Assembly (NCBI GenBank): GCA_903916665.1
Contig: CAIWXP010000120.1
Coordinates: forward strand, 1 to 11,808
DNA from: Candidatus Iainarchaeum sp.
GTDB taxonomy: Archaea; Iainarchaeota; Iainarchaeia; Iainarchaeales; 0-14-0-20-30-16
Direction of reading: 5' to 3'
DNA: 11,808 nucleotides
Shown here piece after piece: positions 1 through 11,808 of the stretch. How positions within the stretch are numbered: the stretch's first letter is position 1; each line of letters starts with the position of its first letter. The position numbers and the translations under genes were made by a program. The notes beneath the pieces were generated by a model. That model saw only the letters and a list, made by a program, of their open reading frames with translations. It searched no databases and was not told the DNA's origin.

Positions 1-298
1 TATTATTATTTTTTAATGTTACATAGAATAATTTAATATTATGTTTTCTTGCCATATAATCTTCTGCTAATTTAACCAATCCTTTACCTCTAGATTCTGG
101 AGACAAAACAATTTGAACAAAACCTGAATTCTCGGGTGATTTACAAGGTACAAATCCAACTACACCTACTTTTTTATTATCCCACATAATGCTGTAATAC
201 TTTCCATCTTCTACTATTTTCATAACATCTTTATCTTTTAAAGTTTTAAAATAATCTTCATCAAAATCTATTAACTTAACAGCCATCATATCAATCAT
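1..298 (-). CDS. GNAT-family N-acetyltransferase-like protein, partial (3-prime end lies beyond the left window edge)
   Basis: Absent from the supplied ORF track because it runs off the edge. The minus-strand frame is open from 298 to 1 (99 codons, no stop): MIDMMAVKLIDFDEDYFKTLKDKDVMKIVEDGKYYSIMWDNKKVGVVGFVPCKSPENSGFVQIVLSPESRGKGLVKLAEDYMARKHNIKLFYVTLKNNN. The ATG at 298-296 overlaps the TGA stop (297-295) of the upstream gene (ATGA overlap); alternative ATGs lie at 289 and 286. VLSPESRGKGLVKLAEDY resembles GNAT motif A (R/Q-x-x-G-x-G/A acetyl-CoA loop). The family call rests on this one motif. Confidence 0.5.
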   Translation of the reverse strand, partial: MIDMMAVKLIDFDEDYFKTLKDKDVMKIVEDGKYYSIMWDNKKVGVVGFVPCKSPENSGFVQIVLSPESRGKGLVKLAEDYMARKHNIKLFYVTLKNNN

Positions 299-963
299 CC
301 TCTTTTATTTTTTTCTTTACTTTTTTTAATTCGTTTTTCTGCTTTATAAATATAATAAGAATAAATCACAATAATTATTGCAGAAATAATTATTGGAATA
401 ATTAATAAAAAGAAGCAAAGCTTTTGAAATATTAATCCTAATAATGCTATAAATGCACTAATTATGAATAAATTTGAACCAAATATATGAGTTTTATTCC
501 AATTTTCATCACTATTCAAAGTCCAGGGCGTTCTTATACCTACAAAATAATTTCTTTTTGTATGTTTTAACATTACACCCAGATAAAAAAACAAAAAGAA
601 AAATCCAGGAATTATGGCAACACCAAAATTAAACGTTTTTCCCAAACCAAAAATAATAATTAATAATTGCATGTAAAGCATGAATAGTAAAAATGTTAAA
701 ACAAAACCATCATAGTACTTTTGGAAATATTTATAATTCTCCTTTAAAGGATCAAATCTAGGCAAAAAATATAATAATAAAAACAATATTCCTGACATTA
801 TTGGCATCAATAAAACAGCTAATAATTTAGAACTATGCCCATTTACATTCCCATTAATATCCCAATGACTAGGAACTACGTCTGGCAAATAAAAATAGGC
901 TAAAAGACTTATAACAAATAAAATTACTAAAATGATAATTGCAAAATAATTACTTTTATTCAT
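295..963 (-). CDS. DUF1648 + SdpI-family integral membrane protein (SdpI/YhfL-like immunity/signalling protein family)
   Basis: 222 aa with multiple hydrophobic helices. N-terminal YLPDVVPSHWDINGNVNGHSSK matches the DUF1648-type motif. Central RNYFVGIRTPWTLNSDENWNKTH is the hallmark SdpI-family motif (GIRTPWTL...W). The tail is Lys-rich (KAEKRIKKSKEKNKRG). ATG start at 963, TGA stop at 297-295. Confidence 0.8.
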   Translation of the reverse strand: MNKSNYFAIIILVILFVISLLAYFYLPDVVPSHWDINGNVNGHSSKLLAVLLMPIMSGILFLLLYFLPRFDPLKENYKYFQKYYDGFVLTFLLFMLYMQLLIIIFGLGKTFNFGVAIIPGFFFLFFYLGVMLKHTKRNYFVGIRTPWTLNSDENWNKTHIFGSNLFIISAFIALLGLIFQKLCFFLLIIPIIISAIIIVIYSYYIYKAEKRIKKSKEKNKRG

Positions 964-983
964 AGTATTAATACTAATTAAAG

Positions 984-991
984 AATATAAA
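984..991 (-). promoter_or_regulatory. Putative TATA box (TTTATATT) with a purine-rich BRE-like flank, positioned for a leaderless SdpI-family transcript
   Basis: The minus strand reads GTAGAAAGGA-TTTATATT-CTTTAATTAGTATTAATACT-ATG. The box centre is about 24-25 nt upstream of the ATG at 963, the spacing expected for a leaderless archaeal mRNA. No SD-like sequence sits near the ATG. Confidence 0.35.
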
Positions 992-1009
992 TCCTTTCTA
1001 CACTATCAA

Positions 1010-1753
1010 TTAGGCTTTGATTTTAGAAAATAGATAACTTCCAATGCCCAATGCAACAAAAGTTAATAGCCCTAGAATTATAAAATCTAATAATATACCA
1101 AAATGTGCCACTCCACCAAATGCTGCTCGTAAACCATCCACCCCATAGGATAATGGGTCTACAACAGCAATCCAAGTTATAATAGAGGGCAAACCTTCTA
1201 AAGGGAATAATGCTCCTGATAAAAAGAAAATTGGCATTACTAAAAAATTCATAATCAATTGGAAACCTTGCATATCATCTAAAACTGAAGCAATTGCAGT
1301 TCCCAAAGCAGTAAAAAATAAAGCTATTAAGAAACCAAAAACTAAAGCCAAAGGCAATAAAGCAAAATTTATCTGGAAACCAAACAATAAAGAAATCAAA
1401 AGAACAATTAATCCTTGGGCCAATGAAATTGTTGCACCACCCAAAGTTCGTCCAACCATAATCTTAAATCTTGAAACTGGTGCAACTAAAGTTTCTTTCA
1501 AAAAACCAAACTGCTTATCCCAAATAATTTCTATACCTGAAAACAAAGCAGTAAATAAAATACTCATTGCAATAATCCCTGGTGCTAAAAATTGAATATA
1601 ACTACCTCCACCGGCTTTTGCAAATATTGGACCAAAGCCAAAGCCAAAGGCAACTAAAAATAATAAAGGTTGTGCTATTGAACCAATAATTCTTGATTTA
1701 GATCTTAAATATTTTTTAATTTGTCTTAACCAAAGAATACCAATAGGACCCAT
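1010..1753 (-). CDS. ABC-2 type transporter permease (DrrB/NodJ-like exporter membrane subunit)
   Basis: 247 aa with about six hydrophobic segments. The N-terminus LRQIKKYLRSKSRIIGSIAQPLLFL is typical of ABC-2 permeases. Its ATG (1753-1751) shares one base with the TAA stop (1755-1753) of the upstream ATPase gene (TAATG), which implies translational coupling. Confidence 0.85.
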   Translation of the reverse strand: MGPIGILWLRQIKKYLRSKSRIIGSIAQPLLFLVAFGFGFGPIFAKAGGGSYIQFLAPGIIAMSILFTALFSGIEIIWDKQFGFLKETLVAPVSRFKIMVGRTLGGATISLAQGLIVLLISLLFGFQINFALLPLALVFGFLIALFFTALGTAIASVLDDMQGFQLIMNFLVMPIFFLSGALFPLEGLPSIITWIAVVDPLSYGVDGLRAAFGGVAHFGILLDFIILGLLTFVALGIGSYLFSKIKA

Positions 1754-2556
1754 TACTTTCGCCCCCAGGCTTTTGCATGAACTTTAAACTGATCTTTAGT
1801 TGTTGCAATTTCATCTCTAATTTCATGACCTGTTAATTCAATAAATGCATCTTCCAAAGTTTTTGTTTTTGTTTGTTTTTTTAATTCTTCACCAGTGGAT
1901 TCAATAATAATCTTTCCTTTATCTATTATTGCAATCCTATTTGCAACTCTATCAGCTTCATCCATATAATGAGTTGTAAAAAATATTGTTGTTCCTTCTT
2001 CTTTATTCATTTTTAATATATAATCCCAAATATGATTTCTTGTTTGAGGATCTAAACCTAAAGTGGGTTCATCTAAAAATAATATTTTAGGATGATGTAA
2101 TAAACCTCTTGCAATTTCTAATCTTCGTTTCATACCACCAGAAAACTCTTTTACTAAACTATCTTTTCTTTCCCAAAGTTCAACAAACTTTAATAATTGT
2201 TCAATTCTTGGCTTTATTGTTTGTTTAGAAACATTATACAAAACAGCATGTAATTCCATATTTTCCCAAGCAGTTAAATCATCATCTAAGCTAGGATCTT
2301 GAAAAACTATACCAAAAGTTTTACGAATTTCGTTTGCACTAGTTGTTAAATCAAAACCATTTAATTTTACTATGCCAGAAGTTGGTTCTAAAATAGTAGT
2401 TAACATTTTAATGGTTGTTGACTTTCCAGCACCGTTTGGTCCTAGGAACGCAAATATGTCTCCTTGATTAACATCAAATGATATATTATCAACAGCAGTA
2501 AAGTCTTTGAACTTTTTCGTTAACCCTTTTACTTCAATTGAAAACATATACATCAC
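1753..2556 (-). CDS. ABC transporter ATP-binding protein (DrrA/NatA-like, partner of the ABC-2 permease)
   Basis: Walker A GPNGAGKST, Q-loop GIVFQDPSL, ABC signature FSGGMKRRLEIARGL, Walker B ILFLDEPTLGLD, H-loop FFTTHYMDEA and C-terminal LEDAFIELTG. The track start at 2556 is a GTG. In-frame ATGs at 2553 and 2547 (MFSIEVKGL...) are at least as likely, and GTGAT at 2556-2552 could serve as the RBS for the 2547 ATG. Confidence 0.95.
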   Translation of the reverse strand: MMYMFSIEVKGLTKKFKDFTAVDNISFDVNQGDIFAFLGPNGAGKSTTIKMLTTILEPTSGIVKLNGFDLTTSANEIRKTFGIVFQDPSLDDDLTAWENMELHAVLYNVSKQTIKPRIEQLLKFVELWERKDSLVKEFSGGMKRRLEIARGLLHHPKILFLDEPTLGLDPQTRNHIWDYILKMNKEEGTTIFFTTHYMDEADRVANRIAIIDKGKIIIESTGEELKKQTKTKTLEDAFIELTGHEIRDEIATTKDQFKVHAKAWGRK

Positions 2557-2684
2557 AAAATAAATACTAAAATAAGATTCTATTTTAATTTTGTTAATTT
2601 TCTAATAAAATTAAAATTAACTATAATTATAAAAAGCAAATTACATATATAAATGTATCGGTAACGATAGTTTGATAATCAATC

Positions 2685-3977
2685 CTATGGGTTAACTAAT
2701 TGACCCATAAATAATATATTTCTTGTTTCCTTATCAATTATGTAAAACATAAATGGATGATTTGCATCAAATACTTTTGGTTCCTGTGGATTTATAGGCA
2801 TTGCCGTAGCCACAACACCAATTACTGTTGCTGCAGCTGCTTCTGTTCCTTCTTCATTAACTTCAATAAATGCTTTATGTATTACATCAGAAACAAATAA
2901 ATTTTTATTGCCAGTAAATCCAGATAAATCTGCTTTATCTGTAAAAACATCTTTTAAACCCAAATCAATTAATTGATTCTTTAAATTATTGTAGGTAACT
3001 TCTAATTTAAATTTTGGTAAATATAAATCTACCTTCTCAAAATTCATATTACTTAAAACAGTATTTAATTTATTATTGTCAAAATCATTTAATGAATTTA
3101 AATCTGTTTTGGGTAAAACTACAATCATTGATAATTGATTTCCTTTATAAGGCAATTCAATTGCTTGTAATTTTGAATCTTCAAAATAATTAAATCTTTC
3201 ATCAAAAATACTCATATAATTTACTTTTGATGTTATACCAAAATCATTATTAAAATCTTTTTCTTCTGTATTTTCTGGTTTAAATGCCAATAACCAAGAT
3301 CCTTTAAAATATATTGCATTTGCAATAACAATTCTTGTTGATGAATCTATAAAATCCTTTGATATTATATCTTTAATTTTACCATTTGTTTGATTCTCAA
3401 CCCAAGTATTAATTATTTTTACTGCACCATCAACATTACTAAAATCCAAATTATCTAAATTTGCACCATAGTATTTTTTTGCATTGCCAATATATTCTGG
3501 TAATAACGAAAAGTTATTATTTACCCAAATAGCATTTGCAGTACTTAATTTATATTCATTATTATCACTATTATAAGAATTATAAATATTTGCAAAAGCA
3601 GGTCTTCTAATTTCTAAACTAGGATAACCAAAAACATCATCTAATTCTTTTTTTGTATTTTCTTTTGAAGCTTCACTTAAAATAGCAAAAGCATCTGTTA
3701 TACTATATGGTGAATAAAATTGATTCTCTGTTTTTGACAATTCTTTGTATAATTTAAAACCAAATTCATTATTTCCAGTAATAACACTTGATAAAGAATC
3801 TGAACTTAAATTATAATCAATAACTGAATTTGAATTATTTATGGTGTTTAAATCGTTTAAACCATTTGAATCAGAAATAACAGGATTATTATTACTATTA
3901 TCAACTAAAATTCCTACACCTAACACAATTCCAATAACTACTAAAATAACAACCGTTGTTAAAACTTTATATAACAT
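2685..3977 (-). CDS. Serpin (serine protease inhibitor, inhibitory type) with N-terminal signal-anchor and Asn/Ser-rich tether
   Basis: 430 aa. Serpin landmarks are NAIYFKGSW (s3A), LYLPKFKLE, HKAFIEVNEEGTEAAAAT (s5A plus hinge), and FDANHPFMFYI, which fits the PROSITE serpin signature pattern as I recall it. The C-terminus is LFMGQLVNP. The N-terminus MLYKVLTTVVILVVIGIVLGVGILV is one long hydrophobic helix with no lipobox Cys, followed by a low-complexity N/S linker of about 40 aa before the serpin core (NNEFGFKLYKEL...FYSPYSI). Confidence 0.95.
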   Translation of the reverse strand: MLYKVLTTVVILVVIGIVLGVGILVDNSNNNPVISDSNGLNDLNTINNSNSVIDYNLSSDSLSSVITGNNEFGFKLYKELSKTENQFYSPYSITDAFAILSEASKENTKKELDDVFGYPSLEIRRPAFANIYNSYNSDNNEYKLSTANAIWVNNNFSLLPEYIGNAKKYYGANLDNLDFSNVDGAVKIINTWVENQTNGKIKDIISKDFIDSSTRIVIANAIYFKGSWLLAFKPENTEEKDFNNDFGITSKVNYMSIFDERFNYFEDSKLQAIELPYKGNQLSMIVVLPKTDLNSLNDFDNNKLNTVLSNMNFEKVDLYLPKFKLEVTYNNLKNQLIDLGLKDVFTDKADLSGFTGNKNLFVSDVIHKAFIEVNEEGTEAAAATVIGVVATAMPINPQEPKVFDANHPFMFYIIDKETRNILFMGQLVNP

Positions 3978-3981
3978 AGAA

Positions 3982-3986
3982 TCACC
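3982..3986 (-). promoter_or_regulatory. Shine-Dalgarno-like GGTGA upstream of the serpin ATG
   Basis: The minus strand reads TATGGTGATTCT-ATG, with a 4-nt spacer. It is the only G-rich pentamer in this intergenic region. Confidence 0.35.
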
Positions 3987-4010
3987 ATAAACTACATTAG
4001 ATATAACTTT

Positions 4011-4024
4011 ATTTTATATATAAA
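4011..4024 (-). promoter_or_regulatory. Putative archaeal-type TATA box (TTTATATATAAAAT) for the serpin gene
   Basis: The minus strand reads CCAATAAG-TTTATATATAAAAT. The box centre is about 43 nt upstream of the serpin ATG (3977). A TSS about 26 nt downstream of the centre would give a leader of roughly 17 nt containing the GGTGA at 3986-3982. The AT-rich background makes chance TATA-like strings common. Confidence 0.35.
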
Positions 4025-4044
4025 CTTATTGGCTATATCAAAAA

Positions 4045-4518
4045 TTAATTCAATAAAACTATTGAAAAATTTAAAATACTGGCAAATGTTACCCAAAGTA
4101 AATAAGGTATTAGTAAATAAGCACTTATTGGTGATATTTCGAAACATATAATTATGTTTACTAATATAGCAATCCACAATATGAATATTTCTATTAATGC
4201 AAATAATGGTTTGTGTAAACCAAAAAACAAAATACTCCAAAACAAATTCAAAACCAATTGTATTGCAAAAACAATTAATGCTAATTTTACTCCTGAATAA
4301 CCAAAGCCATAGGACACTATTAAATACAAACTAATTCCCATTAAAATAAACAATGCTGTCCATACTGGTCCAAAAATCCAATTAGGGGGATTAAAAATTG
4401 GTTTTTTGATAGTTTTGTACCACGTTTTAACAGAATTTGTTGTAAATATTGACCCTAAAAAACCTATAATCAAAGGTATTGTAATACATATTATTAAGCT
4501 TAACAAATTAAATGTCAT
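4045..4518 (-). CDS. tspO: TspO/MBR family tryptophan-rich sensory protein (5-TM tetrapyrrole-binding membrane protein family)
   Basis: 157 aa with five hydrophobic helices. WYKTIKKPIFNPPNWIFGPVWTALFILMGISLYLI matches the conserved TspO N-terminal motif (WY..L.KP...PP...F..VW..LY..MG). The C-terminal YLLWVTFASILN matches the family's last helix. It lies 19 nt downstream of the preceding gene. Confidence 0.9.
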   Translation of the reverse strand: MTFNLLSLIICITIPLIIGFLGSIFTTNSVKTWYKTIKKPIFNPPNWIFGPVWTALFILMGISLYLIVSYGFGYSGVKLALIVFAIQLVLNLFWSILFFGLHKPLFALIEIFILWIAILVNIIICFEISPISAYLLIPYLLWVTFASILNFSIVLLN

Positions 4519-4537
4519 AGTATCACAAAATTATTAT

Positions 4538-4939
4538 TTATTGCATTTCTAATAAAACTTTCAAAAGATTTTCAGAATCTTTCATTTCTTTTTCAATGGC
4601 TTTAATAAATGATTCTGGTACTTTCTCTAAACCCATAAAATGTAAGCCATTACTTTCTAAATATAAATAACTTATTTTTAATTTTTGCAATGCTAAATAA
4701 TAGGGATCTTGAGATGCTTTTCTAATTTTGGAAACTTTTTTAGTTTTTAAATATTCTTTTAATAATCGTTCATATTCTGATCTTAAAAATTGTGCATGAT
4801 TATATGCTTTTTGAAAAAGATTCTTTGGTATGGGTCTAAATTTTAGATAACCAAATTCTCTCAATGCCCAAAGATCTGTTTCTGTTTGTTTAATTACTTC
4901 TCTAGATCTTGTATGGCATTCTGGAAATCTTACAGGCAT
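4538..4939 (-). CDS. Hypothetical protein, 133 aa, soluble, Lys/Glu-rich, predicted helical; no family recognised
   Basis: Clean ATG-to-TAA ORF. There are only 9 nt (AGTGAGAAT) between the giant gene's TAA and its ATG, and 19 nt to tspO. No TM segment or signal peptide. I could not assign any conserved motif (N-terminus MPVRFPECHTRSREV...). Support for a real gene comes from its operonic position and the lack of overlap with other ORFs. Confidence 0.6.
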   Translation of the reverse strand: MPVRFPECHTRSREVIKQTETDLWALREFGYLKFRPIPKNLFQKAYNHAQFLRSEYERLLKEYLKTKKVSKIRKASQDPYYLALQKLKISYLYLESNGLHFMGLEKVPESFIKAIEKEMKDSENLLKVLLEMQ

Positions 4940-4948
4940 ATTCTCACT

Positions 4949-7900
4949 TTAACTATAACTTAATGCATGATGTTTTTTTCGTTTTCTATTTGCACTATAA
5001 ATAATTATTGCTAAAATAATTATTAATACAATCATAATATACCAATAATTATTTGTTGTAGTATCTTGTTCAATACCATTGTTTGCTATTGGTTCTACAA
5101 CAGTATTATTATCTTCAACAATAACATTATTATTTTCTGAATTATTATTATCAATTACATTTGTATTATTGTTATTTGAAATTGTATTTGTATTATTATT
5201 TTCAACTACTGCATTATTATCTATTATTTTATTTACATCTTCTAATGCAATTATTGGATCATTTATTACTTTTAATTCAAAGTTTGCTTTTCCATTTGTA
5301 ATTGATAATAATTTTACGCTCAAATCATAGTTTCCATCACCATCATAGTCTCTTTTTATTGATTCACCAATTGCTAAAGTGTAATTCATTGGCGTAGAGT
5401 ATAAATCAAATGAAACACTATTAAAATCTGAATTTATATCTTTAATTATTAATTTATGTCTTATACCATAGTGTCCTTTTTTATCAACAGTAAATTCAAT
5501 TGTTTGATTTAAAGAAATACCTCTTAATACACCTGAGTTATTTACTACTAATGTATTAGATCCAGAACCTGAAGAATTAGAATTGTTATTTGGTTGTTGA
5601 TATTCTTCTAATCCTTGCCATCTTAATACAGGCAAACCATTTTGAGTTTCCCAAATAGTATTAAAATTCCAATTAGTTAAAGGTGCATTTGATGAATTGT
5701 AAAAATAACTTAAATTATTTTGGATTAAAGTACAATCTGTAGATAATGAATTATCATCTTCACTAATACAATCATACCCTGGATTACTAACATAGGATCC
5801 AACAACTAATGAATCGAATTCAGAATATTCATTATGTTGCTTTAAGCCTACTAAGCTTCCAATAGTATCTGGGCCATCACCTAAATTGGTTAAGTTACTC
5901 ACAGTAAAAGAATTTCTAATATCTTCTCCTGATAAGAATCCTACTAAACCACCTACATTATTGGAACCAGAAACATTTCCTGATGAATATGAATTATAAA
6001 TACTCATTTCTGCAGGACCCATAAATCCTACTAAACCACCTACATTATTGGAACCAAAAACATTTGATTTAGAATAACAATTTCTAATAATTGAATTATT
6101 TGCAGATCCTACTAAACCACCTACATTGTCACTACCAGAAACTAAATTATTATCTGAATAGGATTGTCTAATTGCACCTATATTTTGACCTGCTAAACCA
6201 CCTACTGCAAAATACCCCGTTACATTTCCATTAGCATAGGACTTACTAATAGTTCCTGAACTACTTCCAACCAATCCACCAATAGATTCACCAGAAGAAT
6301 TTACATTACCAGTAGCAAAGGAATTAGAAATATTACCATCGTAAGAAGCTCCAACTAAACCACCAACACCATAATTCCCATTTACATCAGCAGAAGAATG
6401 AGAATTAATGGTAGTACTTGTTTGTAATACACCTATTAATCCACCTACACTTTCATTATTTGCAAATACATTCCCAGATGAACTTGAATTAATTACTAAT
6501 CCATTATTTATTTCTGCAGCTAATATTCCTACAGTTGAAAAACCAATAATATTTGCATCAATTAAATTTACACTTGATATTATTGAATTATTAACAGTAC
6601 CAAATAACCCAACATGAGATCTATTAGGCCAATTAGCATACAAATTTAATATATTATAATTGTTTCCGTAAAAATTACCACTAAATTGATCATCCATACC
6701 TATTGTATAAAATCCATTACTTTCATTAGCATACCACGAATTTTCATTATCTTCACAATCTGTTTGATTATTATAATCAAAATCAGAACAATGTGCAGCA
6801 ACAAAATTCCACGTATTAGTATCAGAACAATCTATATTATTAATTAATTCATAATTGTTCCCCTGAGAATAATTTATATTCTGTAAATCTAAACATGAAT
6901 TTATATCATAGTGACCATCGTGATCATTATCATTGATTAATTGTTCCCAATATAATATAGGATAATTATCATCTCTTACTTTCCAAACAGTTGAAAAGTC
7001 CCAATAGCCTGATGCATAAACATTAAAATCAGGATTGTAAAAATCATTGTAATCTTGTGCTTTAAAAACATTATCTGGATATTCTTCTGCATCCCAATAG
7101 GGCATATTTGAATTATTATACCACCAAAAATTATTTACTGTAAAATCATCAGAATAATCATATAAAATAATTGCTGAATCTGGATTCAATGTATTTACTG
7201 TTGAATAACAATTATTTATTTCTAAATAGGGTACTTCGCCAACAAAACCACCTGATGCATTACCATTAATATCTCCAGTAGTATAGCTATTTGAAATAGT
7301 TAATGATAAACCACTATCATTATTCTCTGCTCCATAACCTACAAATCCACCTATATCTGAAAATGCATTTATATTTACATTTGCATAATCGTTGTAAAAA
7401 AGTAAACTATTGTCATTGGTGTAAGAATTAACTGTTCCAACTAAACCACCAACATCGCTTCCATTTAAAACAAAAATATTAACATCTGCAAATGATTGTA
7501 TAATACTAAATTCATAGTCTTCTTCTTCAACATTTTGACTTTCAAATAATCCTATAAATCCACCAACATTTTGTATTTCATTGTCAGAAGATATATTTCC
7601 TTTAAAATAGGATTTTTCAATGTGAACACTTGTTCTTCCTTCGTTATTTAATCCACCTACTAATCCACCAATATCACTACCAGTTACAAATATATTTGCA
7701 TCTGCACCTGTGTTTTGTATATTTGGATAGGGAGTATAACCAATTAATCCTCCAACATTCTGTTGTGCATTTATATCTCCATAAAATAATGAGTTTGTGA
7801 CATTAATACTTGATGTATAATATTGGTCTTCATCTGAGCTATAATACATTGCATAGCTAGATCCTACTAAACCACCAACATCATTTTGGCCAATAATATT

Positions 7901-10900
7901 AGCATCAACATAAACTGTATTCAAAGAACAATTTGGATTATCATCTTCAATATTACAATCCATTTCACCAATTATTCCTCCAACACTACTTCCACTATGA
8001 GCATCAATATTACCAAAGAAACTTGAATTATCAATTGTTATATCTGATCTATTATCACAGGGTTCTTGTCCTGAAATACCTACTAATCCACCAACATAAC
8101 CCATAACACCAAATATATTTGCATCAACTCTTGAATTCTTTATATTTGTAAAACAACTTAAACCTACTAATCCACCAACAGCAAATACACCTAAGAAACT
8201 ACCAGTAGCAGTTACATTTGTAATATTTAAATTATTATTTCCGGTTGACATTGATACCAACGCACCAACCATTATTTCTCCAATTATATTGGCATTAATT
8301 ATATTCAAATCCTTAATTGTTACTTCACTATTATTTGAATCAACAACACCAAACAAACTAGCAAAATTATTTTCTGAATTTATATACAAATTACTAATAC
8401 TATTATTATTACCATCAAAATTTCCAGTAAATGGAATTTCAGTTCCTAAAGGAATAAATCCCAAATATTTATCTTGAATCCAATTAGCTGCTTGAGCATC
8501 ACAATCTTCTGGATTATTAATATCAGGGAAACCATCACAGTGTGCAGGGACAAAATTCCATGTGTTAGTATCAGAACAATCAATATTATTTCCTAAACTA
8601 AAATTTGCATCTAAAAAATTGTTGATATCTTGTAATTGATTACAATCAGTAACAACAAATGGATCATCAAATGTTCCTGTACCAGAAAATGGCGCATATG
8701 TAACATTTACATTTATATCATTTATTGTTTCATTACCAGCATTATCTACTGCTTTAATAAAATAGGTATGTTCCCCCAATTCTTGTGTGTACACATTAAT
8801 TGAAGTATTCAAATCATTGCTTACCCAATTAACATTATTATCACTGAAAAGATATTCTTTTATTCCCGATAAACTATCTGTTCCAGTATAATTTAATTGA
8901 AAATCTAAAGTTGAATTATGAGTATATAAATCAGAATTATTATTTGGCGAATTAATATTTAAATCTGGTGCAGTTTTATCTATCAAAATATATTTTGTAT
9001 ATTGATTACCATCCACACCAAAGAAATTCTTTGAATAATAAGTAATTCCATTTCTACCTTCTGTTGTAAATGAAATATTTGAATTATATAATTCAGAAAT
9101 TATTCCCCCACCAACAATATTTTTCAATGTAAAACCTGTACCATCACCAAAAGAATATGCCCCATCACCAAGATCAACATATACATCGTGATTAAAAGTT
9201 ATTGGATCTACTAAATCAACAGCACTACTTGGATACTGTCTTACTACCCAGGCATTACCTTGAGAATCAAATGATATTCCTTTTTGCCAACCCAACCATG
9301 GATGAATATCAAGACTATTATTTAAAGGATTAATTACTGAAACTCCGTCCATTGCACCATAATCATTTGCTACCCAAACCTTACCATCTAAACCAATAGA
9401 AACATCATTAGGGTGATCTTGAAGATTAATTGTTGCAATTACAGACTGAGTTTCTGGATCAATTCTTGAAATTGAGTCACTCCAATAATTTGATACCCAA
9501 ACATTGTTATTTAAATCAACTGCAATACCTGTTGGAGATGCGCCTACCGAAATATTGTAATCATTTGTATTTGTTGTTGCATTTATAAAAAATACTTTGT
9601 CTAAACCACTTACTGCCACCCAAACATTTTGATCAGGACCTACTGCAATATCATAGGGATTACCACCAATATTAATTGTTGCAATAACTTCATTTGTATC
9701 TAAATCTATTCTATATACAAATCCATCAAAACTAGACACCCAAGCATTATTATTTGCATCAATTGCAATACCCCACGGTCTTGAATCTAAAGGAATTGTA
9801 TTAAAAATTTCATTTGTATTTGCATTAATACCATAAATTTCTGAAGAATCAAATCCAGTTACCCAAGCATTACCATAATTATCTACTGCAACACTATAGC
9901 CAACATTTGGAATATCTATTGTCGCTTCTAATTCATGAGTAATAGTATTTATTTTATATAATTTTTTTGCACTCGTTGCAGACACCCATAAAGTATCTGG
10001 AGAAAAATTATTAATTAAATAATAACTATTTCCACATCCTGATCCATTATCAACACAGGTTAAATGTAAATCTATATCACTATTATGCCACGCATCAAAA
10101 TTAATATCTACATCGGTTGTTGCAGATGCTGTTTGATATTTTAAAATTGGATAATTATTGTTTCTAGTTTTCCAAATGTTTTGTAAATCCCAAATCATAA
10201 TTGGATCCTCTACTTCAGAACCTTGGAACCAACCCAATCCTCCTCGCGCAGGAACCATTATATTACAATGAGAATTATCTTCTGAATCACAAAAAAGAGT
10301 ACTATCATCACTAGATTGGTAACCCCATAATTCATTTACAGAACCATAACTATTAACAGTTCCAAATAAAAAACCAACATCAAGAGGCCCAGAAATATTT
10401 CCAACACTAAATAAATTATTTGCATTTGTTAATTGAGTATCTACTCTACCAATTAAACCACCAGCATTACTTGATATTGCATTTACATCTCCAGAATTAT
10501 AGGAATTATTAATATAATTATTTGTTAACAAAAAACCAGCTAATCCACCAACATAATTATTTCCATCTATATTTCCAGAATTATAGCTATTTAAAATATT
10601 TAAATCATAGCCTGAATAACCAATTAAACCTGAAACATAATCATTACCAAAAATATTGCCTGTTGAAAAACTTTCATTAATTATTACATTATTATTAGTA
10701 TCAAACTGTTCTGATTGCCCAATTAAACCACCAACATAATTACTATTAGAATAAATTGATCCTATATTTAATGAACGGTAAATATTTGTTTGTCCATTAT
10801 CTGAACTTGCAGAACCAATAGCTCCTATTAATCCACCTACATTATTTGCATCATCAACAACATTAATATCAGCATAGTTACTAGAATTCAATATATTTGC

Positions 10901-11808
10901 AGCCCTAACTCCATTTCCTTCTCCCAATAATGCAATTAGACCCCCTACTGCATAACCAGAATTTCCAAAATCATAAATCTTACCATAGTTATCTGAATGA
11001 TTTACTGTAAAATTATTTGCAGTCAATACATACCCAATTAATCCACCTACATTTGTATACCCCTTAATTGTACCATAATTATTTGACCGATAAATATTTA
11101 CGTCTCCAAATGTACCAATATTAGCAATTAAACCAGCTGCATCAAAACTATCTAAATCAGTTGTATTAACATTTGCATAATTATTTGAATTAATTATATT
11201 TGTTATACCGCTTGCATTAATATTTAAATATCCTATAATACCTGCTGCATCCGAATGACCGGCAGAAATATTTCCTGAAACGTTAACATTGGAAACTGTG
11301 AAACTTACATTATGTTGGTCATAATCTACGCCTATCTGGCCAGCCAATGCACCAACATCTTCATAACCACTAATATTAAAATCTGCCAAAGTTAAATCTT
11401 TAATTACAACATTATTATCAACAAATATAGTACTAAATACTCCTACCGTAGATAAATTTGGATTATTAATATACAATCCACTTATTGTATGATGATTTCC
11501 ATCAAAATTACCTCTAAATGGATGAAAATAATCACCTATTGGTTGCCAACCCAATCCACCATTCCAAAAATCGCCACCTTCATGAGTTTGATCAAAACAA
11601 TTTATATCATTTGCTAAAGCAAAATAGGGTACATAAAAATTATCAAAATTATCTGGCTCAGTATTTGCAGGATCTAAATGAAAAATCATAAAAGACAGGT
11701 CCCAACAATTATATATTGGACAAGGATTATTAGATGTTTGACCTAATTTAAAGGTTCCATCATCGTTATAGTCTAAACAAATTCCATTGGCAAAAACTAA
11801 ATTTAAAA
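4949..11808 (-). CDS. Giant cell-surface protein (5-prime partial): 3x GLUG-motif beta-helix modules + beta-propeller + Ig-like domain + C-terminal TM anchor; putative adhesin
   Basis: The track ORF (4949..11689, 2246 aa) begins at an internal Met. I translated the same frame upstream (11690-11806) and it stays open to the window edge: ...LNLVFANGICLDYNDDGTFKLGQTSNNPCPIYNCWDLSF-MIFHLDP. At least 2,285 codons are therefore visible. There are about 31 GG[LI][VI]G-type GLUG motifs in three blocks, each ending in W.F..[IV]W......[YL]P[IV]L.[YW][QE]. The C-terminus is YWYIMIVLIIILAIIIYS + ANRKRKKHH. Paired Cys residues and very many N-x-S/T sequons fit an extracellular location. Confidence 0.9.
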   Translation of the reverse strand, partial: LNLVFANGICLDYNDDGTFKLGQTSNNPCPIYNCWDLSFMIFHLDPANTEPDNFDNFYVPYFALANDINCFDQTHEGGDFWNGGLGWQPIGDYFHPFRGNFDGNHHTISGLYINNPNLSTVGVFSTIFVDNNVVIKDLTLADFNISGYEDVGALAGQIGVDYDQHNVSFTVSNVNVSGNISAGHSDAAGIIGYLNINASGITNIINSNNYANVNTTDLDSFDAAGLIANIGTFGDVNIYRSNNYGTIKGYTNVGGLIGYVLTANNFTVNHSDNYGKIYDFGNSGYAVGGLIALLGEGNGVRAANILNSSNYADINVVDDANNVGGLIGAIGSASSDNGQTNIYRSLNIGSIYSNSNYVGGLIGQSEQFDTNNNVIINESFSTGNIFGNDYVSGLIGYSGYDLNILNSYNSGNIDGNNYVGGLAGFLLTNNYINNSYNSGDVNAISSNAGGLIGRVDTQLTNANNLFSVGNISGPLDVGFLFGTVNSYGSVNELWGYQSSDDSTLFCDSEDNSHCNIMVPARGGLGWFQGSEVEDPIMIWDLQNIWKTRNNNYPILKYQTASATTDVDINFDAWHNSDIDLHLTCVDNGSGCGNSYYLINNFSPDTLWVSATSAKKLYKINTITHELEATIDIPNVGYSVAVDNYGNAWVTGFDSSEIYGINANTNEIFNTIPLDSRPWGIAIDANNNAWVSSFDGFVYRIDLDTNEVIATINIGGNPYDIAVGPDQNVWVAVSGLDKVFFINATTNTNDYNISVGASPTGIAVDLNNNVWVSNYWSDSISRIDPETQSVIATINLQDHPNDVSIGLDGKVWVANDYGAMDGVSVINPLNNSLDIHPWLGWQKGISFDSQGNAWVVRQYPSSAVDLVDPITFNHDVYVDLGDGAYSFGDGTGFTLKNIVGGGIISELYNSNISFTTEGRNGITYYSKNFFGVDGNQYTKYILIDKTAPDLNINSPNNNSDLYTHNSTLDFQLNYTGTDSLSGIKEYLFSDNNVNWVSNDLNTSINVYTQELGEHTYFIKAVDNAGNETINDINVNVTYAPFSGTGTFDDPFVVTDCNQLQDINNFLDANFSLGNNIDCSDTNTWNFVPAHCDGFPDINNPEDCDAQAANWIQDKYLGFIPLGTEIPFTGNFDGNNNSISNLYINSENNFASLFGVVDSNNSEVTIKDLNIINANIIGEIMVGALVSMSTGNNNLNITNVTATGSFLGVFAVGGLVGLSCFTNIKNSRVDANIFGVMGYVGGLVGISGQEPCDNRSDITIDNSSFFGNIDAHSGSSVGGIIGEMDCNIEDDNPNCSLNTVYVDANIIGQNDVGGLVGSSYAMYYSSDEDQYYTSSINVTNSLFYGDINAQQNVGGLIGYTPYPNIQNTGADANIFVTGSDIGGLVGGLNNEGRTSVHIEKSYFKGNISSDNEIQNVGGFIGLFESQNVEEEDYEFSIIQSFADVNIFVLNGSDVGGLVGTVNSYTNDNSLLFYNDYANVNINAFSDIGGFVGYGAENNDSGLSLTISNSYTTGDINGNASGGFVGEVPYLEINNCYSTVNTLNPDSAIILYDYSDDFTVNNFWWYNNSNMPYWDAEEYPDNVFKAQDYNDFYNPDFNVYASGYWDFSTVWKVRDDNYPILYWEQLINDNDHDGHYDINSCLDLQNINYSQGNNYELINNIDCSDTNTWNFVAAHCSDFDYNNQTDCEDNENSWYANESNGFYTIGMDDQFSGNFYGNNYNILNLYANWPNRSHVGLFGTVNNSIISSVNLIDANIIGFSTVGILAAEINNGLVINSSSSGNVFANNESVGGLIGVLQTSTTINSHSSADVNGNYGVGGLVGASYDGNISNSFATGNVNSSGESIGGLVGSSSGTISKSYANGNVTGYFAVGGLAGQNIGAIRQSYSDNNLVSGSDNVGGLVGSANNSIIRNCYSKSNVFGSNNVGGLVGFMGPAEMSIYNSYSSGNVSGSNNVGGLVGFLSGEDIRNSFTVSNLTNLGDGPDTIGSLVGLKQHNEYSEFDSLVVGSYVSNPGYDCISEDDNSLSTDCTLIQNNLSYFYNSSNAPLTNWNFNTIWETQNGLPVLRWQGLEEYQQPNNNSNSSGSGSNTLVVNNSGVLRGISLNQTIEFTVDKKGHYGIRHKLIIKDINSDFNSVSFDLYSTPMNYTLAIGESIKRDYDGDGNYDLSVKLLSITNGKANFELKVINDPIIALEDVNKIIDNNAVVENNNTNTISNNNNTNVIDNNNSENNNVIVEDNNTVVEPIANNGIEQDTTTNNYWYIMIVLIIILAIIIYSANRKRKKHHALSYS
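4952..5047 (-). other. C-terminal transmembrane anchor plus basic cytoplasmic tail of the giant protein
   Basis: YWYIMIVLIIILAIIIYS (hydrophobic, about 18 aa) is followed by ANRKRKKHHALSYS and the stop. No LPXTG, PGF or PEP motif precedes it. Confidence 0.85.
5048..5254 (-). repeat. Asn-rich low-complexity stalk (NN[NT]x[VI][IV][DE] quasi-repeats)
   Basis: IIDNNAVVENNNTNTISNNNNTNVIDNNNSENNNVIVEDNNTVVEPIANNGIEQDTTTNN lies immediately before the TM anchor and contains several N-x-T/S sequons. Confidence 0.8.
5255..5551 (-). other. C-terminal membrane-proximal beta-sandwich-like domain of unknown family, with a DxDxDG loop
   Basis: LVVNNSGVLRGISLNQTIEFTVDKKGHYGIRHKLIIKDINSDFNSVSFDLYSTPMNYTLAIGESIKRDYDGDGNYDLSVKLLSITNGKANFELKVIND shows an alternating hydrophobic/polar beta pattern. 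It is bracketed by the low-complexity linkers QQPNNNSNSSGSGSN and the Asn-rich stalk. Confidence 0.45.
5609..6940 (-). repeat. GLUG beta-helix module 3 (Cys-rich head, about 9 short regular GLUG repeats, cap NWNFNTIWETQNGLPVLRWQ)
   Basis: The head is DHDGHYDINSCLDLQNINYSQGNNYELINNIDCSDTNTWNFVAAHCSDFDYNNQTDCED...FSGNFYGNNYNILNLYANWPNRSHVGLFGTV. It is followed by a regular period of about 22-29 aa, I.NS[YF]..GNV.G...VGGLVG. Examples: IRNCYSKSNVFGSNNVGGLVGF, IYNSYSSGNVSGSNNVGGLVGF. Confidence 0.8.
5937..6127 (-). repeat. Near-identical intragenic DNA direct repeats inside module 3
   Basis: 5937-5978 (aatcctactaaaccacctacattattggaaccagaaacattt) and 6024-6065 (aatcctactaaaccacctacattattggaaccaaaaacattt) differ at one position over about 42 nt and lie 87 nt (29 codons) apart. 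A third copy of the 22-nt core atcctactaaaccacctacatt is at 6106-6127. They encode (S/D)NNVGGLVG(F/S). Confidence 0.85.
6941..8689 (-). repeat. GLUG beta-helix module 2 (Cys-rich head, about 11 GLUG repeats, cap YWDFSTVWKVRDDNYPILYWEQ)
   Basis: The head is GTFDDPFVVTDCNQLQDINNFLDANFSLGNNIDCSDTNTWNFVPAHCDGFPDINNPEDCD...GFIPLGTEIPFTGNFDGNNNSISNLYINSENNFASLFGVV. GLUG motifs: VGALVSM, VGGLVGL, VGGLVGI, VGGIIGE, VGGLVGS, VGGLIGY, IGGLVGG, VGGFIGL, VGGLVGT, IGGFVGY, SGGFVGE. Confidence 0.8.
8690..8980 (-). other. Ig-like (OmpL47-type / bacterial Ig-like) domain of the giant protein
   Basis: KTAPDLNINSP...TGTDSLSGIKEYLFSDNNVNWVSNDL...ELGEHTYFIKAVDNAGNET follows the pattern TAP ... D.LSG[IV]...Y....W ... 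G.H.....A.D.AGN.E, which is typical of these Ig-like surface domains. Confidence 0.6.
9185..10009 (-). repeat. Beta-propeller region, 6-7 blades of about 41-43 aa (YVTN/NHL/Vgb-lyase-like repeats)
   Basis: The recurring unit is P.GIA[VI]D..[GN]N.WV.......I.RI[DN]..TN.VI.TI.[LI]. Examples: SRPWGIAIDANNNAWVSSFDGFVYRIDLDTNEVIATINIG, GNPYDIAVGPDQNVWVAVSGLDKVFFINATTN, ASPTGIAVDLNNNVWVSNYWSDSISRIDPETQSVIATINLQ, DHPNDVSIGLDGKVWVANDYG, WQKGISFDSQGNAWVV. Confidence 0.75.
10130..11808 (-). repeat. GLUG beta-helix module 1 of the giant protein (head partly outside the window; about 11 GLUG repeats; cap WDLQNIWKTRNNNYPILKYQ)
   Basis: The head is ...FALANDINCFDQ...GWQPIGDYFHPFRGNFDGNHHTISGLYINNPNLSTVGVF. 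It is followed by repeats of about 20-30 aa, each ending in VGALAGQ, AAGIIGY, AAGLIAN, VGGLIGY, VGGLIAL, VGGLIGA, VGGLIGQ, VSGLIGY, VGGLAGF, AGGLIGR or VGFLFGT. The cap motif is encoded at 10133-10192. Confidence 0.8.

Follow-up and report, generated by a model that had tools for sequence, protein, structure and literature searches.

Introduction

Serpins displayed at the surface of prokaryotic cells are best illustrated by miropin from Tannerella forsythia, a surface-displayed lipoprotein serpin which captures proteases of foreign origin and presumably shields the proteins of the surface (10.1101/2025.09.05.674453). More generally, prokaryotic serpins equipped with a membrane anchor constitute a recognised class (PMC8233489). 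The serpin gene considered in the present work occurs, together with seven neighbouring genes, on a contig of the archaeon Candidatus Iainarchaeum sp. (contig CAIWXP010000120.1, assembly GCA_903916665.1), which was analysed over its whole length of 11,808 bp (about 27% G+C) and will be referred to as the window. In the order of transcription, the window encodes a giant GLUG-repeat surface protein, a 133-residue ORFan, a membrane protein of the TspO/MBR family, the serpin, the ATPase and the permease of a DrrAB-type ABC-2 exporter, a membrane protein associating DUF1648 and SdpI domains (the SdpI-like protein) and a GNAT acetyltransferase. The original prediction, drawn from the sequence alone, proposed these eight genes as a speculative module for cell contact and self-protection, with the caveat that their linkage could equally be coincidental in a compact genome.

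Taking into account the gene neighbourhoods of close and distant relatives, the window would correspond, with a probability of roughly two in three, to an ordinary stretch of the AT-rich chromosome of a DPANN-type archaeon, made of four or five independent transcription units facing the same direction. The giant, the ORFan and TspO would be read together, the serpin would possess its own TATA box and Shine-Dalgarno (SD) sequence, and the DrrAB-type exporter on the one hand and the SdpI/DUF1648 and GNAT genes on the other hand would form the remaining units. TspO, the serpin and the SdpI-like gene would be residents of a plastic slot located beside the gene of the Hef helicase and also holding an ornithine/diaminopimelate (DAP) decarboxylase (OrnDC), the gene order of which would mostly consist of inherited local synteny, reshuffled and eroded depending on the lineage. 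The giant and the ORFan, as well as the ABC-2 pair intercalated between the serpin and the SdpI-like gene, would represent lineage-specific additions. We infer from the loci of its relatives that the window itself, a single contig of the source genome, belongs to this slot.

Gene neighbourhoods in the close clade

The close clade consists of DPANN archaea whose serpins are 62-71% identical to that of the window, the closest named relative being labelled 'Candidatus Diapherotrites archaeon CG08'. Pairwise identities within the clade are 72-84% for Hef (75-80% over the full length), 75-82% for OrnDC, 60-76% for the serpin and 58-84% for TspO, the clade TspO proteins being 58-71% identical to that of the window. 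Owing to the closeness of these genomes, as estimated from Hef and OrnDC, an order of genes shared by descent is to be expected. In addition, Hef and OrnDC are as syntenic with TspO and the serpin as TspO and the serpin are with each other and, since the unrelated OrnDC travels with the TspO and serpin genes, inherited synteny accounts for most of the linkage. The arrangements found in the different lineages are listed in Table 1.

Table 1. Gene order around the serpin and TspO genes in the close clade; (-) marks the minus strand.
Locus	Gene order
L003-6	Hef(-), serpin, 174 aa ... 730 aa(-), 270 aa, Zip, MscL; no TspO, ABC or SdpI
L007-10/L097	GNAT, serpin, then convergent ABC-2 permease + ATPase (55%, 64% identical to those of the window)
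L015/L098	Hef(-), 347 aa(-), OrnDC, TspO, 52-nt spacer, serpin, 0-nt spacer, SdpI-like, 132 aa(-), 728 aa(-)
L158-160	Hef(-), serpin, 1-nt overlap, TspO, 34 aa, OrnDC
L163	serpin, 0-nt gap (TAG then ATG), TspO
L012	Hef(-), TspO, 269 aa, BacA, OrnDC; TspO without serpin
L011	(709 aa, cut)(-), TspO ... 705 aa(-), Zip, MscL; TspO without serpin

Each partner has also been lost singly, the serpin occurring without TspO in L003-6 and L007, and TspO without the serpin in L011 and L012. Neither the giant nor the ORFan nor the GNAT gene of the window recurs, and the largest combination present in a relative comprises three of the eight. The adjacency of the serpin with the ABC pair recurs once, in L007-10/L097, where the pair is convergent to the serpin and therefore not co-transcribed with it.

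The relatives L003, L006, L011, L012, L098 and L159 share a conserved backbone around the slot, consisting of HicA-DUF7387-FtsZ ... ParE-FEN1-Hef(-), the variable slot, and then a Cep192/ASH-like protein of 730 residues on the minus strand, a protein of 270 residues, Zip, MscL, a DEAD helicase and CSD. The slot contains various mixes of TspO, serpin, SdpI-like, OrnDC, BacA, integrase and unknown open reading frames (ORFs), and represents a hot spot at which gene flux is locally concentrated in these DPANN genomes. The protein of 269 residues encoded directly after TspO in L012 (L012:10477-11286) harbours a Sigma70_r4 domain (56.5 bits), on a contig otherwise carrying archaeal-type Hef and FEN1.

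Several observations weigh against independent units. In spite of reshuffled surroundings, TspO and the serpin lie side by side in the same orientation in four of the six serpin lineages (the window, L015/L098, L158-160 and L163), and their order is swapped in L158-160 and L163, where they overlap by 1 nt or follow each other with a 0-nt gap. The serpin and the SdpI-like gene, an association that recurs once (L015/L098), are separated by a 0-nt spacer in L098. To judge from these junctions, the tight coupling of TspO with the serpin and of the serpin with the SdpI-like gene hints at co-expression. Finally, both in L007 and in a distant locus of Aenigmatarchaeota, L036, a convergent DrrAB-like pair is found next to the serpin or at a distance of one gene. 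The outcome named in advance as contradicting the original prediction, a complete lack of conserved pairwise adjacencies in related genomes, did not occur: TspO-serpin (L015/L098, L158-160 and L163), serpin-SdpI and serpin-ABC are conserved, all of them confined to close relatives within a shallow clade.

These data would also fit a smaller entity, in which TspO and the anchored serpin, often accompanied by the SdpI/DUF1648 protein, build an undescribed co-expressed envelope module of a single DPANN clade, preserved through local rearrangements. A membrane ligand sensor or transporter would be tied to the inhibition of proteases at the surface, in order to protect an episymbiont, and the giant, the ORFan, the ABC pair and the GNAT would be bystanders. 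The direct co-oriented adjacency found in both orders, the stop/start overlap or 0-nt gap of the swapped lineages and the 0-nt serpin-SdpI spacer of L098 all speak in favour of such a module, as does the co-variation of the identities to the window proteins (71/68/58% for TspO, 69/67/62% for the serpin). We nevertheless consider it unlikely. The swapped order corresponds to a single lineage, L159 and L163 being sisters (76% identity for the serpin, 84% for TspO), and two genes can exchange places and yet remain neighbours through neutral tandem duplication and subsequent loss. Hef and OrnDC are equally linked to the pair without any plausible functional tie, and L003-6, L007, L011 and L012 have each retained a single member of the pair. 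Within the window, a run of five T, a TATA-like box and an SD sequence part TspO from the serpin. Moreover, the pairing occurs in none of the 130 serpin loci from outside the clade, and a literature search for a link between TspO and serpins returned nothing relevant.

Serpin loci outside the clade

The comparison beyond the clade relied on 130 non-redundant serpin loci from diverse archaea and bacteria, totalling 1.53 Mb with flanks of up to 10 kb. The scan of a genome collection, in which, among the matches listed, the serpins were 38-47% identical, provided an outgroup that does not include close relatives. TspO was found in the flanks of 0 of these 130 loci. According to a Pfam census of the immediate neighbours of the serpin, no family occurs more than twice among 120 downstream genes or more than four times among 114 upstream genes, and no recurrent partner or protease partner emerged. 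Only winged-helix regulators (HTH_45, MarR_2, ArsR-like) show a slight recurrence in the position directly upstream of the serpin (3-4 of 114).

Four DrrAB-like pairs occur in the loci from outside the clade, which amounts to about one per 380 kb and would be close to the genomic background rate. One of the distant loci, L036 from Aenigmatarchaeota (L036:10001-13997), associates a serpin 39% identical to that of the window with a DrrAB-like pair 51-53% identical to that of the window, and displays the same serpin-to-ABC geometry as L007. In two loci of Planctomycetota (Pirellulales and Sedimentisphaerales; L077:2552-4184 and L091:11262-12386), HAAS and DUF1648 domains occur immediately downstream of the serpin in convergent orientation, either within one ORF (L091) or in two overlapping ORFs (L077; HAAS 2967-4184, DUF1648 2552-3034). 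These HAAS-DUF1648 proteins, convergent and devoid of an SdpI domain, were rejected as equivalents of the SdpI-like protein of the window.

Proposed transcription units and chance expectation

All of the ORFs of at least 100 residues occur on the minus strand of the window, which carries seven complete or near-complete ORFs and an eighth one cut at its 3' end; the original prediction had likewise assigned all eight genes to one strand. In the order of transcription, the genes are separated by spacers of 9, 19, 67 and 128 nt, a 1-nt overlap between the ABC ATPase and the permease, a spacer of 46 nt and a 4-nt overlap (ATGA) between the stop codon of the SdpI-like gene and the start codon of the GNAT gene; the 9-, 19- and 67-nt spacers and both overlaps given by the original prediction agree with these coordinates. 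The 67-nt spacer between TspO and the serpin contains a run of five T directly after the TspO stop codon, a TATA-like TTTATATA at 4017-4024 and a GGTGA motif located 5 nt before the serpin ATG, so that both of the signals previously reported upstream of the serpin are present, and this spacer is probably the promoter region proper to the serpin. The 128-nt spacer that follows the serpin similarly combines a run of five T after the stop codon with a TATA-like TTTATATA at 2646-2653, which may act as terminator and promoter, respectively, and the 46-nt spacer contains a TATA-like TTTATATT at 984-991, some 20 nt before the ATG of the SdpI-like gene, as a candidate promoter.

Over the whole window, the motif TTTATAT[AT] is not enriched, with 14 matches vs 12.6 expected. 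However, three of its six matches on the minus strand fall within the 241 nt that make up the three long spacers preceding the serpin, the ABC pair and the SdpI-like gene and, unlike the totals, these positions are suggestive. Owing to the TATA-like motifs present in all three long spacers and to the runs of five T that follow the TspO and serpin stop codons, some four separate units (giant-ORFan-TspO, serpin, ABC pair and SdpI-GNAT) are plausible, in agreement with those of the original prediction.

With respect to the common orientation of the genes, adjacent genes share the same strand in 58% of the cases in the loci of the closest relatives and in 63% in all fetched loci of at least 10 kb. 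The probability of seven same-strand adjacencies in a row is 0.02-0.04, and 16% of the genes in the fetched loci belong to same-strand runs of at least eight. A transmembrane (TM) segment is predicted by a crude hydropathy criterion in 40% of the ORFs of the relatives, vs five of the eight products in the window, which are completed by one ATPase partner (P = 0.18 for at least five of eight). Both the co-orientation and the enrichment in envelope proteins are unremarkable and do not exceed what chance allows in such genomes.

The original prediction went further and united all eight genes in a single island for cell contact and self-protection, in which the giant adhesin would ensure contact, the serpin would act as a shield, and the ABC-2/SdpI-like pair would export, or confer tolerance to, a membrane-active factor. 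The genes are indeed co-oriented and tightly packed, five TM products and an ATPase partner are present, and the serpin recurs with TspO, SdpI or ABC in relatives. Yet the membrane content and the shared strand are as expected, the giant and the ORFan occur in no relative, sets larger than three genes are not kept together, and in L007 the convergent orientation of the ABC pair and the serpin makes one operon impossible. Neither a toxin or bacteriocin gene nor an SdpC/SdpR-like gene was detected with Pfam and NCBIfam. The recurrence of the serpin, the ORFan or tspO beside GLUG giants, suggested as a check by the original prediction, was not encountered, the giant being unmatched in about 160 related loci and the ORFan being devoid of homologues. 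Such an island, which would represent a new kind of archaeal apparatus for contact and self-protection, is not supported by the evidence and is very improbable; the membrane-rich character of the region stands as an observation, within expectation, and the caveat of a coincidental linkage comes closer to the data. Taken as a whole, the original interpretation is partly supported, most of the pattern being accounted for by inherited synteny and a shared strand due to chance.

Another interpretation would regard the stretch, or its giant + ORFan and ABC parts, as a recent mobile or defence island, or the giant and the ORFan as a polymorphic toxin and its immunity gene. The ORFan directly follows the gene of a giant surface protein, a position typical of immunity genes, and the region varies among the relatives, the syntenic region of which contains toxin-antitoxin genes (HicAB, ParE) and an integrase. 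The C-terminus of the giant, however, consists of a linker, a TM anchor and a basic tail, without any match to a toxin domain. The G+C content at third codon positions (GC3) is uniformly low in all genes of the window (0.10-0.20), the value of the ORFan (0.119) being similar to that of its neighbours, so that no recent import is apparent. Integrase, tRNA target, flanking repeats and deviant composition are all lacking within the window, the ends of the contig limiting this search for a mobile island. Scans for tRNA, Rfam families, tandem repeats and other repeats returned nothing in the window except the repeats coding for GLUG motifs, and PADLOC found no defence system, only a generic ABC/AAA ATPase similarity of the transporter ATPase. 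A mobile or toxin origin is accordingly hardly credible, and an ordinary chromosomal stretch of independent units remains the preferred interpretation.

Gene products of the window

The coordinates of the genes and of the long spacers are given in Table 2. The family assignments of the original prediction hold when compared with Pfam and NCBIfam.

Table 2. Genes and long spacers identified in the window.
Feature	Position	Strand	Basis
Giant GLUG surface protein	4949..>11808	-	ORF; no in-frame stop codon before the contig end
133-aa ORFan	4538-4939	-	ORF; 9 nt after giant, 19 nt before TspO
TspO/MBR family membrane protein, 157 aa	4045-4518	-	PF03073
TspO-serpin spacer, 67 nt	3978-4044	-	Sequence and motif positions
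Serpin, 430 aa	2685-3977	-	PF00079
Serpin-ABC ATPase spacer, 128 nt	2557-2684	-	Sequence and motif positions
ABC transporter ATPase, DrrA subfamily, 267 aa	1753-2556	-	TIGR01188, PF00005
ABC-2 permease, DrrB-like, 247 aa, six TM segments	1010-1753	-	PF01061
Permease-SdpI-like spacer, 46 nt	964-1009	-	Sequence and motif positions
DUF1648 + SdpI-domain membrane protein, 222 aa, six TM segments	295-963	-	PF13630, PF07853
GNAT acetyltransferase, N-terminal 99 aa, cut by contig end	1-298	-	PF00583

The serpin exhibits a full-length fold (PF00079, 369.5 bits, profile positions 2-370 of 370) and its matches in the PDB are conserpin and serpins of clade B (E = 1e-77). In serpins, a hinge that follows the P17-P8 consensus E-x-G-T-E-A-A-A-x-T permits the insertion of the loop. 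The hinge of the window serpin, EEGTEAAAAT, fits this consensus, is of the canonical inhibitory type and is invariant in 24 aligned relatives; the P1 residue is predicted as Thr, or Ala/Met, by our own count. The N-terminal region consists of a hydrophobic anchor or signal (residues 5-25, one TM segment predicted) followed by an Asn-rich linker. No Cys occurs in this region (…VLGVGILVDN), which consequently lacks a lipobox, whereas most relatives of the clade carry a lipobox-like SG-C, and a tether consisting of an uncleaved TM anchor is possible. The serpins of L003-6 are similarly devoid of the lipobox Cys. An additional Asn-rich insertion of about 20 residues (…DSNGLNDLNTINNSNSVIDYN) distinguishes the window serpin from all of its aligned relatives. 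An exact-match look-up of the window serpin returned no record. As judged from thousands of matches, many of them with lipobox-like signals, anchored serpins of the inhibitory type appear widespread in DPANN and CPR-type organisms; a literature search combining DPANN and serpin yielded nothing relevant. A short contig from ENA (L001) is 100% identical to the window over 1,281 nt and then continues as an unrelated, GC-richer sequence (L001:1282-1334 vs window position 3923 downwards). The point of divergence falls inside the TM-coding region of the serpin and most likely corresponds to a chimeric assembly end rather than to a variant.

TspO is covered by PF03073 almost from end to end (167 bits, profile positions 1-144 of 145) and aligns with solved TspO structures (E = 1e-21). 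Six TM segments are counted by crude hydropathy, vs the five TM helices that characterise the family, and the protein belongs to TspO/MBR, with an NCBIfam equivalog score (107 bits) below the cut-off of 180 bits.

The two subunits of the exporter resemble DrrA and DrrB to a slightly different extent. The ATPase, which also matches PF00005 (ABC_tran), exceeds the cut-off of TIGR01188 (drrA; 328.9 vs 312.45 bits), and the permease, readily recognised by PF01061 (ABC2_membrane, 133 bits), remains about 2 bits under that of TIGR01247 (drrB; 221.1 vs 223.05 bits). The ATPase and the permease are 64% and 55% identical, respectively, to their L007 counterparts. With 267 residues, vs 328 residues in L007 where a DrrA1-3_C domain is present, the ATPase of the window is apparently missing about 60 internal or C-terminal residues.

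The SdpI-like protein combines SdpI (PF13630, 71.3 bits) and DUF1648 (PF07853, 56.5 bits) domains and shares 59% identity with the product of the gene located directly 3' of the serpin in L015/L098; no solved structural relative was found. Neither an SdpR-like repressor gene nor an SdpC-like toxin gene occurs in the window or beside the L098 orthologue, according to the ORF list, Pfam and NCBIfam, and an immunity function of the SdpI type, of which these are the defining partners, is not supported. The GNAT, represented by its 99 N-terminal residues, scores 24.3 bits against PF00583 (Acetyltransf_1; cut-off 20.7). The GNAT located beside the L007 serpin was considered as its possible orthologue and rejected (27% identity over 77 residues).

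The giant, truncated at its 5' end by the contig end (a truncation that the original prediction does not mention), exceeds 2,285 residues in its real size. It contains three GLUG-repeat modules (Pfam Glug, 72.6 bits), a β-propeller of the Vgb_lyase/NHL/YVTN type at residues ~559-775, a weak sub-threshold match to the Ig-like Big_13 domain (16.2 bits vs a cut-off of 27, E = 0.015) and, at the C-terminus, an Asn-rich linker followed by a predicted TM anchor and a basic tail. At the DNA level, internal repeats code for VGGL(V/I)G. Each of the GLUG modules opens with a similar Cys-containing head (…DCSDTNTWNF…GNFDGN…), and repeat copies occur at 6759-6856 and 8508-8605, and also at 11465-11522, 8378-8435 and 6632-6689, with 72-78% DNA identity, which suggests a duplication of the modules within the gene. 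No tblastn match (E <= 1e-4) to the giant was found in any of the ~160 related loci. It may function as an adhesin.

The ORFan matches itself alone among 5.8 billion clusters (word-based search) and 1.84 billion representatives (full phmmer search), and has no match in Pfam, NCBIfam or PADLOC. It is present in identical form in two other samples. The AlphaFold2 model is all-helical, with a predicted local distance difference test (pLDDT) score of 70; the protein is predicted to be a soluble, generic helical bundle, and no PDB match of the model with an E-value under 0.4 was obtained with Foldseek. The ORFan was also compared with unknown ORFs of about the same length from L007 and L098, which are unrelated to it.

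Possible roles and significance

The localisations and biochemical roles that we infer for the products would most likely be those usual in their respective families. The giant would serve for surface attachment or interaction and TspO for the binding of a ligand, either a tetrapyrrole or a lipid, within the membrane. The serpin would covalently trap extracellular serine/cysteine proteases at the cell surface, as miropin does, and the ABC-2 pair would export a hydrophobic compound. On our best reading, every product is a member of a known family and the clade-specific pairing of TspO with the serpin, at times extended to SdpI, is the sole residue worth following. The serpin kept beside TspO in one clade offers a testable lead on the roles of both families in prokaryotes, and the Hef-adjacent slot provides a clear example of a plastic region collecting envelope genes in reduced archaeal genomes.

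Comparison with known systems

Like miropin, the window serpin associates the full serpin fold with a canonical inhibitory hinge and an N-terminal export or anchor sequence. In contrast to miropin, it belongs to an archaeon (DPANN), is devoid of the lipobox Cys and displays an uncleaved-looking TM segment prolonged by an Asn-rich linker. The giant shares multiple GLUG motifs with other GLUG-repeat giants, e.g., the N-terminal regions of the streptococcal Zmp/IgA1 proteases, and weakly matches Peptidase_M26_N and ZmpA; it differs from them by the lack of a detected peptidase domain, an inserted β-propeller and an archaeal-style C-terminal TM anchor. The exporter possesses the ATPase, the six-TM ABC-2 permease and the overlapping stop/start of the DrrAB daunorubicin-resistance exporters, except that its ATPase apparently lacks about 60 residues of the C-terminal DrrA domain present in the L007 orthologue. 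The SdpI-like protein has the DUF1648 + SdpI architecture and the six TM segments of SdpI/YfhL from Bacillus; compared with the sdpRI-sdpABC arrangement, its gene is paired with the GNAT gene in the window and with the serpin gene in L098. Finally, TspO shares the full-length PF03073 domain and a structural similarity with the bacterial TspO proteins (the tryptophan-rich sensory proteins from Rhodobacter and Bacillus cereus), from which it is distinguished by a score under the equivalog cut-off and by a linkage to a serpin gene that is specific to its clade.

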